A DNA stretch of 64,000 nucleotides from Escherichia phage AV116. The stretch lies in the sequence record OR352946.1; one strand, written 5' to 3'. The notes beneath the pieces were generated by a model. It had not been told where the DNA came from. It saw only the letters and a program-made list of their open reading frames with translations, and made no database searches. Positions 9,178 to 42,943 of this stretch are shown here, in pieces (position 1 is the first letter of the stretch; each line of letters opens with the position of its first letter). The translations under genes were made by a program, and so were the position numbers.

Positions 9178-9314
9178 TTCATAGGTCTATTATATCATAA
9201 TATTTAGAGACCTATCTTAAAGCACGAGATACTATAAAAGATACATAACTTTTATAAAGTTGTCGACTTAAAATTCACCAATCTTTTCTTCAGTTATACT
9301 GATTCGAGTTAATT

Positions 9315-9542
9315 TCATTCTAGTTCCTTTGCTGCTTCAAGAGCAGCATCCAGCGAATCAAATTGGTCAACGAAATCAATATTTAACGCATCGTCAACCG
9401 TAGCATATAACCACCATTGTTTGAATTCGTATTCAAGAATAAATCCAGGACCTTCAATCTGAGGAAGACCTAGGCTATTTGTACCAACTTCGTAACCAGC
9501 TAGACGCAGGTCATTAATCAAAGTTTCTGTTAATACGCTCAT
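9315..9542 (-). CDS. hypothetical acidic protein
   Basis: 75 aa co-oriented ORF. Confidence 0.45.
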   Translation of the reverse strand: MSVLTETLINDLRLAGYEVGTNSLGLPQIEGPGFILEYEFKQWWLYATVDDALNIDFVDQFDSLDAALEAAKELE

Positions 9543-9871
9543 TTTACCGCCTTAACAATTTTCAGGTCAACGAATTTTTTCTTACGTTGATTTTTCATAC
9601 GACGGATAGTCTTTTCAGAGATTTCATGTTTCTGATAAGCTTTAGATTCGACACCAAATGCAGCAACGTCAAATTCAGAAAGAATGTATTGCACTAGAAT
9701 TTCACGAATAGAGTTACGTCCAATTTTCTGCTCATGTTTTTGCATGATTTCATAGAGACGATATTCCCAGGCGTCAAGAACTTGAGGAGTAACAATATTG
9801 CCGGATTCCAGAAGAGCAACAACTTTATCGAAAGCGAAAGAATTAACTACGTTTTTGATTTTAGTAGACAT
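9539..9871 (-). CDS. hypothetical protein
   Basis: ATG at 9871 (MSTKIKN...) with GAGGAAA SD; early promoter module immediately upstream. Confidence 0.5.
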   Translation of the reverse strand: MSTKIKNVVNSFAFDKVVALLESGNIVTPQVLDAWEYRLYEIMQKHEQKIGRNSIREILVQYILSEFDVAAFGVESKAYQKHEISEKTIRRMKNQRKKKFVDLKIVKAVK

Positions 9872-9890
9872 ATTATTTTCCTCGGTTATT

Positions 9891-9938
9891 TTATTATCCA
9901 ATGAGAGCATTATACTCTGCTCTCAAGAGTTTGTAAAT
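9891..9938 (-). repeat. 48-nt exact repeat copy A (early promoter module)
   Basis: ttattatccaatgagagcattatactctgctctcaagagtttgtaaat; identical copy at 37698..37745; contains TTTACA-N17-TATAAT on minus strand. Confidence 0.85.
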
Positions 9939-9940
9939 CG

Positions 9941-10153
9941 TTATCCGAACTTTTTAGCGCCTTTCCAGCCTTCGTACATAACTGCACAAGTCAGTAGCAC
10001 AGCGTGTTGGCATTCTTTGTATTTGTAAATCCAGAACCAGCGTAAAAAGTCTTCATCCTCAACACCGTTGAGTTTCATGTTGGCGAAGAATTCAGCTCGT
10101 TCTTCGCGAAGTTTTTGAGATAACATAGATTCAGGATTCATTTTGTGTTCCAC
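9941..10153 (-). CDS. hypothetical protein
   Basis: 70 aa co-oriented ORF. Confidence 0.4.
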   Translation of the reverse strand: MEHKMNPESMLSQKLREERAEFFANMKLNGVEDEDFLRWFWIYKYKECQHAVLLTCAVMYEGWKGAKKFG

Positions 10154-10279: not shown

Positions 10280-10573
10280 TCAACTGTAACGATAACATTC
10301 GTTAGCTTTACGTTTGGCTTCAGTATGAGAAGTATTATAATCATACTCTTCTTTACTGTAAACATCTTTTTTCAACTTACGAACTTCTTTGCGGAGTTGT
10401 CGATTCATTTCGTTCTTGACTTCAGAATCAACGCCTTTCATACGTTTCCATTTATCTGAGCGGAAGATGTTTTCAACCATGTCTTTGTGGCTAACACCGT
10501 CAGGAGCTTTACGTTTACCAAAATAGTCGTAATCACGAACTTTCAAATCTTTACGACGATACGTTTTACCCAT
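10280..10573 (-). CDS. hypothetical basic protein
   Basis: ATG at 10573 (MGKTYRRKD...), lysine/arginine rich. Confidence 0.4.
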   Translation of the reverse strand: MGKTYRRKDLKVRDYDYFGKRKAPDGVSHKDMVENIFRSDKWKRMKGVDSEVKNEMNRQLRKEVRKLKKDVYSKEEYDYNTSHTEAKRKANECYRYS

Positions 10574-11008: not shown

Positions 11009-11173
11009 TTTATTTTCCTCTATAGTAGATGGTTTAATCTTAACACATCTATCGAGGATGTAAACTGTTTTATGAAAATATTTTTGATTTGAGAGGGGCA
11101 CAAGGAGATAGTGAAGTGAAGATTCCAATGGATTATATTAGAAATGAGATAAAGAAGACCAGGCGGCACCTGG

Positions 11174-19612: not shown

Positions 19613-19639
19613 GTTTTACCTCCAGTAGTTGATAGGTCT

Positions 19640-19668
19640 ATAATAACATAACCATAGACCTTGTAAAC
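19640..19668 (-). promoter_or_regulatory. T4-type early promoter-like element
   Basis: minus strand GTTTAC-N17-TATTAT followed by AGACCTATC. Confidence 0.5.
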
Positions 19669-19670
19669 AA

Positions 19671-19958
19671 CTAAAAGAAACTTTTTTCGGTATTTTTTCC
19701 ACTGAACCAAACCGACTTCGGGATTTTTTGTAATTTTTCAGATTTAAGTTTCTCTTCCTGCTCTTTCTTATATACACCCTTGTCGTACTGGAGCATCTCT
19801 ATGGCATTCTTTTGCAAACAATCTAAGGTAATTAAGGCTTTAGTTTTTCCTTTCAAGGAAGAGTCCTGGCGAACCTCCTCGCTATATTGCATCGTAGAAC
19901 TAACCATACGATGAGCATAGAGTTCGACTGCTGCTTTAATTTTTTGCATAAAATCCAT
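19671..19958 (-). CDS. hypothetical protein
   Basis: 95 aa; AAGAGGA SD upstream of ATG at 19958. Confidence 0.4.
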   Translation of the reverse strand: MDFMQKIKAAVELYAHRMVSSTMQYSEEVRQDSSLKGKTKALITLDCLQKNAIEMLQYDKGVYKKEQEEKLKSEKLQKIPKSVWFSGKNTEKSFF

Positions 19959-23646: not shown

Positions 23647-23769
23647 TCATTTTACCATACTCGTTTCAATAAGATTCACTATGCCGTTTACCATGTTATA
23701 AGTAAACATCGGATAATTGTATTGTATCACAACGTATACGATAAGCAAAAGTTTCATTTTGTTCTCCAT
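23647..23769 (-). CDS. small hydrophobic ORF (40 aa), hand-translated, not in ORF track
   Basis: MENKMKLLLIVYVVIQYNYPMFTYNMVNGIVNLIETSMVK; GGAGAAC SD; directly downstream of a promoter module. Confidence 0.3.
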   Translation of the reverse strand: MENKMKLLLIVYVVIQYNYPMFTYNMVNGIVNLIETSMVK

Positions 23770-23786
23770 TTGTTTTGATAGGACTA

Positions 23787-23815
23787 CTATAACATAGTCC
23801 TATCAAGATGTAAAC
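23787..23815 (-). promoter_or_regulatory. T4-type early promoter-like element inside hairpin GATAGGACTA..TAGTCCTATC
   Basis: minus strand GTTTAC-N17-TTATAG; -10 flanked by 10-bp inverted repeat. Confidence 0.5.
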
Positions 23816-24048
23816 TACCGATTATGTTTTAAATGTTGATAAAGTTCTTCAACTTGTTTAGGGTCCAAAACAATTAGGTCATTTTCTTGGCGAAGATAAA
23901 TCCATCCCTTATCTCCAGGACCATTTTTACAAAACATCACCACCATATCATCATCTTCAGCGCTTTCAGGTAAAAGTTCAAGTACACCGTCTTCAGATTT
24001 TCCAGTATAATCGTAAAGCATAATATCCTCACATAATCTCGTTAACAT
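23815..24048 (-). CDS. hypothetical acidic protein
   Basis: 77 aa ORF. Confidence 0.4.
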   Translation of the reverse strand: MLTRLCEDIMLYDYTGKSEDGVLELLPESAEDDDMVVMFCKNGPGDKGWIYLRQENDLIVLDPKQVEELYQHLKHNR

Positions 24049-24264: not shown

Positions 24265-24273
24265 TGATAGATG

Positions 24274-24303
24274 CCAAAAAGCCCCGACCTTTCGGAAGGG
24301 GCT
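24274..24303 (-). terminator. rho-independent terminator-like hairpin after rI
   Basis: AGCCCC..GGGGCT hairpin followed by UUUUU on minus-strand RNA. Confidence 0.55.
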
Positions 24304-24309
24304 AGTAAA

Positions 24310-29528: not shown

Positions 29529-29831
29529 TTATTTACCTTTAATTACTTTAGCTGCTTCGATAGCCGCTTGCTGAAGGTCATCCATAGACATACCAAATTT
29601 AGAAGCAAAGTTATCAATTTTCTTTTCGACAGCATTCAAAGGCTTGGCCTGTTTACCTTCATTAGCGCCAGGAAGAGCGAGAATACGCTCTTTGTCAATA
29701 TAAAGGCTTACAAGTTTCTTACGGTCTTTATCGGACAAATCATGAAATGAATGGGCCTTTTTATTTATAGCGGCTTCTAATTTACCTGCACTCACTCGCG
29801 CTTCAGTAATAAATTCTTGATATGTTTTCAT
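29529..29831 (-). CDS. internal protein with capsid-targeting sequence (IPII/IPIII-like)
   Basis: N-terminus MKTYQEFITEARV is the T4 internal-protein capsid-targeting sequence with L-x-E prohead protease site. Confidence 0.65.
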   Translation of the reverse strand: MKTYQEFITEARVSAGKLEAAINKKAHSFHDLSDKDRKKLVSLYIDKERILALPGANEGKQAKPLNAVEKKIDNFASKFGMSMDDLQQAAIEAAKVIKGK

Positions 29832-29894: not shown

Positions 29895-30155
29895 TTAAGC
29901 TTTACCGCCAGAAATAATTCCGAAGTTGTTAAAATCGTATCCAATATCGTCAACATCTACTTTAGGACTTACTACAACATAAGCAATTTCACTACGTTTT
30001 GCATAGGTGTTGATTTCTTTACCATCGCCACCTAAGAAAGAATACCCATTACGTTTTAATGAGCCAAAGTCTTCGGCATCACCAATGAAAGCTTTAACTT
30101 TAAATTTAGGACCTTTGGCATCTGCTTCAGCGATAAATTCTTGATACATTTTCAT
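29895..30155 (-). CDS. internal protein-like (capsid-targeting sequence), glycine-rich
   Basis: N-terminus MKMYQEFIAEA. Confidence 0.55.
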   Translation of the reverse strand: MKMYQEFIAEADAKGPKFKVKAFIGDAEDFGSLKRNGYSFLGGDGKEINTYAKRSEIAYVVVSPKVDVDDIGYDFNNFGIISGGKA

Positions 30156-30633: not shown

Positions 30634-30915
30634 CTATTTTTCTGAAGCGCCTGAAATATATTTTTCAAGACGCTGTTTCATCAACGAGCCGTTCTTAGCG
30701 ATTTCTTCCGGTTTATCGCACATACGCAACAATGCTTCAAGCTTAGCGATATCGCTGGTACGTTCAAATTTGCGAGTATCTATCTTACTAGCAAGTTCAG
30801 AAATACGTGCTAATAGACTTTCAGCTTCAACCAAAGCTGCACCTAGCTTAGTTGCAAATGTGTCAGTAGCTTCGTTAAGAATAGATTCTGATAAAAATTC
30901 ACTATATGTTTTCAT
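30634..30915 (-). CDS. internal protein-like (capsid-targeting sequence)
   Basis: ATG at 30915 gives [11 protein letters not shown]; ATGA overlap with lysozyme stop. Confidence 0.5.
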
Positions 30916-37030: not shown

Positions 37031-37079
37031 GTTAACTCCTTTATTATCCAAAAGGAGGACCGGAGTCCTCCGTATTATT

Positions 37080-37673
37080 TTATTTCAAAGAGTTAATATA
37101 TTCTTGTACATCAGCAGAAGTGGTTTCGACACCAGCTGGAGTGCCATTGAACGTTTCAACACGAGTCAGAGTGTCTTCGATATCAACCTTAGTCAGTGCA
37201 GCGATTTCAATTACATCATCAGCCGTAGAGATACCAAGGGCATTAGCTGCTCGAGTTTCACGAATGTATTCGAGTTTGATTGCCAGATTCTGACGAGCAT
37301 CATCAAGTTCAACCACCTTACGAGCAATTTCAATTCGCATAGCGGCATACCCGTCAGCTTTTGTATTAAGTTGTTCGGCAGTTCGACGATACAGAAGACC
37401 AAGCTTAGCATGCATGGTAACATCTTGTCCTTCAGCCAAGAGCTTACGAATTTCACGTTCCTTAGAAGCGGCTTGCTTGTTCTTTTCATTAACAAGTTCG
37501 CGAATACGTTTTTCTTCATTAATAGATTTAACAGAAGCCGTTTTTAGTTCTTTGATTTGGGTAATCAACTTATCTGCAGCTGCGTTATACTGTTCTTCGA
37601 CAGTCAGATTTTTAGCCATAGCAGTACCCAGTTTAGTGCGGATGAATTCAACAAGTTTTTTCAGTGTGTTCAT
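37080..37673 (-). CDS. coiled-coil protein
   Basis: ATG at 37673 ([10 protein letters not shown]...); heptad-rich; promoter repeat copy B upstream. Confidence 0.5.
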
Positions 37674-37697
37674 ATTATTACCTTTCAATTGGTGGTT

Positions 37698-37745
37698 TAT
37701 TATCCAATGAGAGCATTATACTCTGCTCTCAAGAGTTTGTAAATT
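37698..37745 (-). repeat. 48-nt exact repeat copy B (early promoter module)
   Basis: identical to 9891..9938. Confidence 0.85.
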
Positions 37746-37971
37746 ATTTTTTAATCAAATTGACATAAAACTCGGCGTCTTCCGGGTGCATGCCTTCACA
37801 GTATTCTTCAACCATGAACTTCTTAACGGCTTCATAAGGACCACTCAGATTAAGCTCAGTTGTCCAGAACTTGGAATCTTGGGCTGAATCGATATGAACT
37901 TCAGGGTGACGGTTGCGAATAACTTCTTCTGTGTATTCATAATCAACGACATCAATACTAACTTTAGCCAT
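37744..37971 (-). CDS. hypothetical acidic protein
   Basis: 75 aa ORF. Confidence 0.45.
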   Translation of the reverse strand: MAKVSIDVVDYEYTEEVIRNRHPEVHIDSAQDSKFWTTELNLSGPYEAVKKFMVEEYCEGMHPEDAEFYVNLIKK

Positions 37972-38595: not shown

Positions 38596-38673
38596 AACTT
38601 TGTGAAAAATTTATCTGCCCTAGATGCCCGAAAGCCCCAACCATAGGAAGGGGCTTAAGTGATTGTAACTTAA

Positions 38674-39300: not shown

Positions 39301-39341
39301 TGATGGTCCTTAGAAAGTAGGTTTATTATTTACTATATTTA

Positions 39342-39373
39342 TACAAAAAAGCCCCAACCTTTCGGAAGGGGCT
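39342..39373 (-). terminator. rho-independent terminator-like hairpin
   Basis: AGCCCC..GGGGCT hairpin followed by UUUUUU on minus-strand RNA; same architecture as 24274..24303. Confidence 0.55.
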
Positions 39374-39383
39374 ATATACCTTG

Positions 39384-39681: not shown

Positions 39682-39758
<77 letters not shown>

Positions 39759-40468: not shown

Positions 40469-40540
40469 TGGCCCTGGCTGGTTTCGATCCAGCTACCTAT
40501 CAGTTATGAGCTGACAGCTCTCCCATTGAGCTACAGGGCC
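40469..40540 (-). tRNA. tRNA with CAT anticodon (Ile-lysidine type or Met)
   Basis: hand-folded: acceptor GGCCCTG/CAGGGCC, D-arm GCTC-AATGGGA-GAGC, anticodon loop CTCATAA, T-arm GCTGG-ATCGAAA-CCAGC; CCA not encoded. Confidence 0.8.
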
Positions 40541-41520: not shown

Positions 41521-41549
41521 TCCCTATAGGCTTGTATACCTTTATTTCA
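41521..41549 (-). promoter_or_regulatory. T4-type early promoter-like element in hairpin
   Basis: minus strand GTATAC-N17-TTATAG. Confidence 0.45.
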
Positions 41550-41805
41550 AATATATTGCGTATTTTTTATAGCCACCAGGCTCGTGTCGAAGACCTTTAT
41601 CATTCGCAAAACGTTGAATGTTATTGAACTGATTTTCATCAAGTTCGGATGTGTCAAATACGAAAAAGTTTCGTTTGTTACCAAGCGTGATATGCGGAGT
41701 TAAGTCAATATTATACAAATTAAGAATATCAGCAATAACCTGATTGACCGCTTTGTTAATTTTCACACCAGATGATTCTGAGATGAATTCGTTGAAAGTT
41801 TTCAT
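41542..41805 (-). CDS. internal protein-like (capsid-targeting sequence)
   Basis: ATG at 41805 gives MKTFNEFISES. Confidence 0.5.
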   Translation of the reverse strand: MKTFNEFISESSGVKINKAVNQVIADILNLYNIDLTPHITLGNKRNFFVFDTSELDENQFNNIQRFANDKGLRHEPGGYKKYAIYLK

Positions 41806-41838
41806 TTTAGGTTCCATTTGGTTGTTTTGATAGGACTA

Positions 41839-41866
41839 CTATAACATAGTCCTATCGTGTTGTAAA
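41839..41866 (-). promoter_or_regulatory. T4-type early promoter-like element in hairpin
   Basis: minus strand TTTACA-N16-TTATAG flanked by GATAGGACTA/TAGTCCTATC. Confidence 0.45.
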
Positions 41867-42178
41867 TTATTTTATGCCTTTAGAAGAAATGGTATTTTGG
41901 CGTTTAACCCCTGTTTGTGAAAAATCGTGGTTATCGATTTGGTCGACTCGCATAACACCAAATGCAGATTTAATTTTAGCCTTTGAACCTTTTTTGATAC
42001 TAATTATCATATAAGTATCATTTTTCTTATATTCGAAATTTGTTACTTCAACGCCTTGATTAGAAATTGACTTAATAATAGCATTAGCGTATTCATCATC
42101 TAACGGACCGGTGGTGTTAATAATAAAATTTTTATCGGCTTTAGTAGCTTCAGCGATAAACTCTTGATAAGTTTTCAT
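41867..42178 (-). CDS. ipI: internal protein I-like (capsid-targeting sequence)
   Basis: N-terminus MKTYQEFIAEA; adjacent to 57B as T4 ipI. Confidence 0.6.
   Translation of the reverse strand: MKTYQEFIAEATKADKNFIINTTGPLDDEYANAIIKSISNQGVEVTNFEYKKNDTYMIISIKKGSKAKIKSAFGVMRVDQIDNHDFSQTGVKRQNTISSKGIK

Positions 42179-42257: not shown

Positions 42258-42943
<686 letters not shown>

Follow-up and report, generated by a model that had tools for sequence, protein, structure and literature searches.

Two exact copies of a 49-nt predicted early promoter module in a Mosigvirus genome are probably PeSL-type cassettes

Two identical 49-nt modules in the DNA analysed here are each probably a PeSL-type cassette, in which a stem-loop around the -10 hexamer would attenuate or insulate read-through transcription, the conserved sequence would serve as a homology patch, and the copy before e.6 would have overwritten the copy before 55.2. 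Judged from comparison of public genomes, the module is an ordinary but well-documented member of this known class, newly recognised in Mosigvirus.

Extent and surroundings of the repeat

The window, ie the whole 64-kb stretch of DNA analysed, comes from a Mosigvirus, an RB69-like T4-type phage whose nearest records are PhAPEC2 (97%) and G53 (99%). Its longest exact repeat is 49 nt, at 9890-9938 (copy 1) and 37696-37744 (copy 2); the two are direct repeats, 27.8 kb apart, and their flanks are unrelated on either side. The initial annotation had reported an exact 48-nt duplicate at 9891..9938 and 37698..37745. That string has exactly two matches, both on the plus strand, at 9891-9938 and 37697-37744, with no third at up to three mismatches within the window, and none of 100 dinucleotide shuffles gave a match. 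The duplication and the first locus were therefore confirmed, the second locus was off by one and the identity reaches one nucleotide further. Exact repeats of at least 20 nt number five in the window, and all are early-promoter modules. Rfam, run at gathering thresholds over the whole window, returned two tRNAs only and no family at the module. The two copies and the genes beside them are as follows.

9890..9938, minus strand: copy 1 of the 49-nt module, promoter positions -36 to +13, predicted early promoter of the 55.2 homolog (exact repeat; synteny with PhAPEC2 and RB69)
37696..37744, minus strand: copy 2 of the 49-nt module, predicted early promoter of the e.6 homolog (exact repeat; synteny)
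9941..10141, minus strand: 55.3 homolog (DUF5490), upstream of copy 1; stop codon 9941-9943, 2 nt from the module
9539..9871, minus strand: 55.2 homolog (DUF7570), downstream of copy 1; ATG at 9871, 18 nt from the repeat
37744..37971, minus strand: frd.3-like ORF (Pfam Phage_FRD3), upstream of copy 2; stop codon 37744-37746, overlapping base 1 of the module
37080..37673, minus strand: e.6 homolog, downstream of copy 2; ATG at 37673, 22 nt from the repeat

Each copy spans the interval that runs from the stop codon of one early gene to the next gene's ribosome-binding region, and base 1 of copy 2, the A at -36, is also the final base of the frd.3-like stop codon. The earlier placement of each copy immediately upstream of a gene holds, on the minus strand. 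T4 gp55.2 is an inhibitor of E. coli topoisomerase I, and the T4 55.2 mRNA has been reported as an early transcript (PMC4396842).

Other features of the neighbourhood were recorded. RB69ORF072c, which lies between gene 55 and 55.1 in RB69 (41537-41874), ATK47, mobillu and mar006P2, is absent from the window (9178-9314) and from PhAPEC2; the shortened gene 55-55.1 gap of the window holds a promoter-like TTTATA-16-TATAGT at 9231-9258. Four small minus-strand ORFs (starts 29802-29831, 30126-30155, 30886-30915 and 42149-42178) open with a near-identical 30 nt (ATGAAAACATATCAAGAATTTAT..., MKTYQEFI...) and form a paralogous family of small early genes, each adjoining a promoter module. A GC-rich hairpin, AAAGCCCC(G/A)ACC...GGAAGGGGCT, occurs in three copies that are 71-91% identical (24271-24304, 38624-38657 and 39341-39374). 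These resemble a repeated terminator module, and two of the three adjoin tRNA genes, at 39685-39758 and 40469-40540.

The predicted promoter

Read on the minus strand, the module is A TTTACA aactcttgagagcagag TATAAT gctctcA ttggataataaa. The TTTACA-17-TATAAT pair matches the sigma-70 consensus at 11 of 12 positions in both copies and is among the best in each scanned region.

9932..9937, minus strand: -35 hexamer TTTACA of copy 1 (consensus scan)
9909..9914, minus strand: -10 hexamer TATAAT of copy 1 (17-nt spacer)
37738..37743, minus strand: -35 hexamer TTTACA of copy 2 (consensus scan)
37715..37720, minus strand: -10 hexamer TATAAT of copy 2 (17-nt spacer)

From spacing only, transcription would start at the A at 9902 in copy 1 and at 37708 in copy 2. 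T4-type early promoters have a GTTTAC-type -35 (-36 to -31), a TATAAT-type -10, an A-rich UP-like tract near -42 and, in RB69, a C-rich -3 to -1 (Nolan et al. 2006, PMC1524935). The module agrees with this type in TTTACA, in TATAAT and in CTC at -3 to -1, and carries A at -36 in place of the usual G. The tract ahead of TTTACA is AT-rich at copy 2 (AAAAAATAA) and more weakly so at copy 1 (AAAAAGTTCGGATAACG); an A-rich UP-like tract is clear at copy 2 only. We infer that the module is a sigma-70/T4-type early promoter whose strand and position fit the 55.2 and e.6 homologs. The view of the repeat as an early promoter module with an internal palindrome is borne out as to sequence class by the consensus match, the strand and the position, its activity being predicted; the -35/-10 pair and the palindrome are both present, and the strand on which to read them is the minus strand.

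The T4 RefSeq record, searched for experimental start sites, carries no promoter features. The literature searched contained nothing usable on start-site mapping in T4 or RB69, and no mapping of the motB promoter was found in the motB papers.

A second perfect TTTACA-17-TATAAT was seen on the minus strand at 10334-10362, inside the 55.5-like ORF; AGTATGA/TCATACT, an inverted repeat of 7 bp, surrounds its -10. This possible internal early promoter has a conserved counterpart at 42332 in PhAPEC2.

A stem around the -10 hexamer

An 8-bp stem, TGAGAGCA/TGCTCTCA, brackets the -10, with arms at -23 to -16 and -7 to +1 and an 8-nt loop, GAGTATAA.

9918..9925, minus strand: 5' stem arm TGAGAGCA of copy 1, positions -23 to -16 (covariation)
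9902..9909, minus strand: 3' stem arm TGCTCTCA of copy 1, -7 to +1; predicted start at 9902
37724..37731, minus strand: 5' stem arm of copy 2 (fold, covariation)
37708..37715, minus strand: 3' stem arm of copy 2; predicted start at 37708

The hairpin folds with -12.6 kcal/mol as RNA (z = -4.5) and with -7.2 kcal/mol as DNA. Covariation was scored over 15 distinct sequences of the module, taken from Mosigvirus, from JS98-like phages and from related metagenomic contigs. Pairing was kept in 96.7% of the cells, and half of the eight pairs change on both sides (A:U<->G:C, G:C<->C:G, C:G<->A:U). The observed score was reached by none of 500 shuffles, and the signal was lost when the partner was slid by 1-3 columns. 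On this covariation, pairing in the stem is under selection.

An inverted repeat centred on the -10 could also be an operator, at which a dimeric DNA-binding protein of the phage or the host would block early promoters, perhaps in the early shut-off of T4. Besides the position of the dyad, the regular geometry speaks for this, many modules having A(-16):T(-7) as the closing pair and a loop of 8 nt, and the mechanism of early-promoter shut-off has been stated to be unexplained (PMC2988021). We nevertheless regard an operator as very unlikely, since the arms differ completely among promoters of a single genome (GAGAGCA, GATAGGACTA, GGTACAGG, GGCTCAT and others), and the compensatory changes within the subfamily, together with the tolerance of G:T, indicate that pairing is conserved and not a recognition sequence.

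As the predicted start is the last base of the 3' arm, the full hairpin would form only in read-through RNA from upstream or in single-stranded DNA. From the upstream promoter at 11064 to copy 1 no terminator-like site was found, so read-through RNA is expected there. The hairpin might then be taken for a conventional intrinsic terminator of the upstream gene, overlapping the promoter fortuitously. In the relatives L045-L051 a true terminator, GGGCTTCGGCCC-T6, does stand in place of the promoter before 55.2, in the same slot ahead of the leader TTGGATAATAAA, which is kept, and one RB49 PeSL stem-loop gave strong termination in a lacZ reporter, in a paper that proposes attenuation of upstream transcription by the stem-loop (PMC2839356). 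The GC-rich stem and U-tract of a rho-independent terminator are not what is found at the module, however: the stem is followed by AUUGGAUAAUAAA or ATTGGATAATAAA with no U-tract, a consensus terminator scan called neither copy, and PhAPEC2 as annotated with ARNold by its authors has no terminator there. A hairpin that runs into AUUGGAUAAUAAA without a U-tract is not a canonical intrinsic terminator, and we think this explanation even less probable than the operator.

On whether the pairing would act in RNA or in DNA, two comparisons were made. Among 46 unique promoter hairpins there were four G:T mismatches against two A:C, which are few counts, and the folding energies of sense and antisense strands in 165 promoter segments were no more asymmetric than in controls.

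When copy 1 was folded as RNA with its flanks (9880-9950, minus strand), UUCGG upstream of the -35 paired with CCGAG in the 55.2 ribosome-binding region, a helix that would occlude the Shine-Dalgarno only in read-through RNA. This outer helix was set aside, being worth only about 3 kcal/mol and losing its upstream partner where another ORF is inserted.

Related modules and other hairpin promoters

The subfamily has four members in PhAPEC2, namely the two exact copies, one before ndd and one before the RB69ORF231c-like gene. The ndd module shares an identical 34-nt core and has TGTACA as its -35; the stem of the ORF231c-like module, GGAGCA/TGCTCC, shows an A:T to G:C double change. In JS98-like phages the stem of the 55.2 module is GGGACCA/TGGTCCY and that of a module before another gene GGGAGCA/TGCTCCY. 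T4 has the module GTTTACAAACTCTTGGGACCAGAGTATAATGGTCCC directly upstream of motB. This shares its sequence and stem geometry with the window module and differs mainly by compensated stem changes; it is, however, present in single copy, before another gene, with G at -36 and the leader GTGGAGTATAAA. A sensitive search found related sequence in 766 phage records. Matches of an 18-mer scan of IMG/VR at eight loci (L011, L014, L019, L022, L027, L028, L030 and L031) lay inside unrelated coding regions and were discarded as coincidental.

Stems around the -10 extend beyond the subfamily. In PhAPEC2 a perfect inverted repeat of at least 8 bp surrounds the -10 in 13 of 127 sigma-70-like hits, compared with 0.6% of random positions. 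The arms of these hairpin promoters are mutually unrelated (GATAGGACTA, GATAGGGCTA, TTGGTACAGG, GGGCTCAT, AGGTCTAT and a 14-bp arm containing a Shine-Dalgarno). Unique promoter segments (n = 165) fold better than downstream controls, at -7.6 against -4.7 kcal/mol (p = 6e-5), and in other genera the -10 of e.6 orthologs is still bracketed by a stem, one whose arms are entirely different. Three similar early promoters were located in the window.

23765..23816, minus strand: similar early promoter with a 12-bp stem TTGATAGGACTA/TAGTCCTATCAA around the -10 (repeat and promoter scan)
41806..41868, minus strand: similar early promoter with a 10-bp stem GATAGGACTA/TAGTCCTATC around the -10 (repeat and promoter scan)
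19629..19688, minus strand: similar early promoter with the stem AGGTCTAT/ATAGACCT around TATTAT (promoter scan)

An early promoter on the minus strand of PhAPEC2 (L003), at about 20117, has a 14-bp stem, TTCTCCAGTAGTTG/CAACTACTGGAGAA, whose 3' arm holds the Shine-Dalgarno GGAG of the downstream gene. The ribosome-binding site would be hidden in read-through RNA and free in RNA initiated at the promoter. In T4 gene e and soc a hairpin likewise hides the ribosome-binding site in read-through RNA only; the PhAPEC2 site uses an early promoter instead.

The leader

The conserved 3' part of the module is a leader, TTGGATAATAAA.

9890..9901, minus strand: leader TTGGATAATAAA of copy 1, +2 to +13
37696..37707, minus strand: leader TTGGATAATAAA of copy 2
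37041..37071, minus strand: intrinsic terminator after e.6, GGAGGACTCCGGTCCTCC then TTTT, followed by the leader motif TGGATAATAA (37041-37050) upstream of e.5

Variants of the form GGAT(A/T)A(T/C)AA are kept in all members of the subfamily, JS98-like ones included, and the T4 motB version is GGAGTATAAA. The leader follows not only promoter hairpins but also true intrinsic terminators, which are GGAGGACTCCGGTCCTCC-TTTT in the window and, in the relatives L045-L051, GGGCTTCGGCCC-T6. It could be a 5'-UTR signal, a processing signal or a recombination joint.

Gene gain, loss and exchange at the module edges

A cassette of about 296 nt, made up of RB69ORF075c and its own hairpin promoter, separates 55.3 from the 55.2 module in RB69, ATK47, mobillu, mar006P2, G53 and phiE142. 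A different ORF occupies this place in phi25-307, and an additional ORF lies upstream of the e.6 module in one relative (L042). JS98-like loci have the upstream gene and the module in common and downstream genes of three kinds. Of 161 Mosigvirus records, 17 had an uninterrupted 55.3-module-55.2 junction, identical at 126/126 positions; among the matches listed, nearly all the rest had an insertion of 290-300 nt. The e.6 junction was uninterrupted in 134 of the 161. Partial BLAST matches stop at the module edges. Homology breaks and small-ORF insertions or replacements at these edges in related phages give substance to the PeSL-like gene shuffling that the initial annotation had suggested.

Genes 49 and e, which are essential in T4, both lie in the 27.8 kb between the copies. 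A deletion between the direct repeats would remove them and so should be lethal, and recombination between direct repeats gives no inversion. Viable deletion or inversion variants, which had been proposed as a check, are therefore not expected. As a substrate for recombination, the role first ascribed to the repeat, the module is consistent with conversion and with exchange between genomes, and not with viable internal deletion.

Origin of the identity between the copies

The 49-mer was found in 160 phage records. The 55.2 and e.6 copies are identical (0/49 differences) in the insert-free genomes read, ie the window, PhAPEC2 and mogra. Of the seven insert-bearing relatives read, six (RB69, ATK47, mobillu, mar006P2, G53 and phiE142) show differences at 3-6 of the 49 positions. 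The 55.2 module of the ORF075c genomes has TATACA as its -35 and a compensated stem, GAGAGA/TCTCTC; that of mar006P2 is a hybrid, with an e.6-type 5' arm and an RB69-type 3' arm. Position -36 is G in the JS98-like 55.2 modules, in T4 motB and in four of the seven ORF075c-type 55.2 modules read. At the e.6 locus an A at -36 is dictated by the stop codon, whose last base it is; at the 55.2 locus it is unforced, which points to e.6 as the donor. A homogenising event in the PhAPEC2-like lineage is likely on this pattern, and in it the e.6 module probably overwrote the 55.2 module.

The same identity would arise if purifying selection on an optimal promoter had held both copies constant, with neither copying nor conversion. 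The e.6 copy is indeed nearly invariant in the Mosigvirus genomes read. The JS98-like outgroup, like the window, has 55.3 followed directly by the module with no ORF between them, and identity of the two copies could in principle be an ancestral state simply retained. Selection as the sole cause is nonetheless unlikely. Most Mosigvirus 55.2 copies read differ from e.6 by 3-6 positions while retaining the promoter boxes and, mar006P2 excepted, a compensated stem, so that identity is not required; the JS98-like and T4 versions also vary between loci; and the non-consensus A at -36 of 55.2 is explained by the e.6 stop codon and not by promoter optimality. The A/G allele at +1 is concordant between the two loci in nine of ten genomes, G53 being discordant, a concordance that could come from shared ancestry instead of gene conversion.

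The initial annotation had read the exact identity as recent copying. This stands in so far as the 49/49 identity is a minority, lineage-specific state (17/161), and fails for the module family, which is old (T4 motB, JS98-like 55.2 and four Mosigvirus loci) and whose 49-mer occurs in the 160 records. Identical sequence at distant loci with adjoining ORF insertions or deletions might also suggest that a small mobile element, MITE-like or associated with a homing endonuclease, has left its trace, or that the repeat is an assembly artefact. The repeat lacks target-site duplications, has no terminal repeats other than the stem and is accompanied by no nuclease gene, and both loci carry it in about 160 independently sequenced genomes; we give this explanation almost no credence.

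Assignment to the PeSL class

PeSLs are known from RB49/phi1, PST/T4 and nt-1/KVP40 (Arbiol, Comeau and Krisch 2010, PMC2839356; Comeau et al. 2014, PMC4122927); in the literature searched, no description of them was found for RB69-like phages (Mosigvirus). Their stem-loop lies most commonly between the two promoter hexamers or overlaps the -10, with a strong sigma-70-type promoter, and recombination crossovers have been mapped inside them (PMC2839356). The term PeSL-like, used of the repeat from the start, is apt, and the module belongs to the subclass with a stem-loop overlapping the -10 described in PMC2839356. We had considered that the module was not a PeSL, from a reading of PMC4122927 in which the stem-loop is only upstream of the promoter; this was overturned by PMC2839356.

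Point by point, the module has a predicted TTTACA-17-TATAAT promoter, intergenic and on the strand of the downstream gene; an 8-bp stem around the -10; an AT-rich tract before the -35 that contains the upstream stop codon, weaker at copy 1; and repeats in hyperplastic regions, with insertion, deletion and replacement of small ORFs among close relatives. It shares with the PeSLs of RB49/phi1, PST/T4 and nt-1/KVP40 a sigma-70-type early promoter, a stem-loop over the -10, tolerance of G:T, hyperplastic repeats and gene insertions and deletions at the edges. It differs from those of RB49 in its short stems, which are not of the GGGG/CCCC type, and also in a T4-type TTTACA in place of TTGACA and in having two copies 27.8 kb apart on either side of essential genes, for which reason excision of a mini-circle between them is not expected.

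Several T4 genes offer a parallel. Gene e, soc, 49 and I-TevI reportedly have, from McPheeters et al. 1986 and related work, a promoter inside a hairpin that is present only in read-through RNA. As in the module, the start site is inside or after the hairpin, so only upstream transcripts fold it. Those promoters are late, however, and their hairpins hide the ribosome-binding site, whereas the Shine-Dalgarno of the 49-nt module is 15-20 nt past the stem and is not sequestered.

We propose that host RNA polymerase would use the module right after infection, copy 1 giving transcripts of 55.2-55.1 and copy 2 those of e.6, as suggested by the consensus match and by homology to the T4 motB module. 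In read-through RNA the hairpin would most likely attenuate or insulate transcription, following the PeSL authors, or stabilise the 3' end of the upstream message, and each small gene would become a self-contained unit. A conserved module between unrelated flanks would act as a portable homology patch for the T4-type recombination system. Small ORFs would be gained, lost and swapped at its edges, and paralogous modules would overwrite one another; overwriting of the 55.2 module by the e.6 module in the PhAPEC2-like lineage would have left the two copies identical at 49/49 positions.

Significance

It is possible, but in our view doubtful, that pairing in the stem, as distinct from its sequence, is functional in its own right and has been kept from T4 motB through JS98-like to RB69-like phages and in dozens of unrelated early promoters. 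In that case T4-type early promoters would serve a dual purpose as DNA/RNA elements, whose hairpin, in read-through RNA or in transient single-stranded DNA, would insulate small-gene cassettes or help to shut early transcription off. The leader GGAT(A/T)A(T/C)AA, found after true terminators as well, would then be a second, separate signal.

With the module read as a PeSL-type cassette, which remains the interpretation we prefer, RB69-like phages would join the phages that carry such cassettes. Earlier papers argued mainly from two phage pairs; here, public genomes alone show a -10 stem selected for pairing and the gain, loss and replacement of genes at cassette edges. For annotation, this would explain why the sole exact repeats of at least 20 nt in the region are promoters, and it predicts transcription units for 55.2 and e.6. 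For phage engineering, the cassettes would be natural, self-insulated insertion points, and may also be sites of unwanted recombination.
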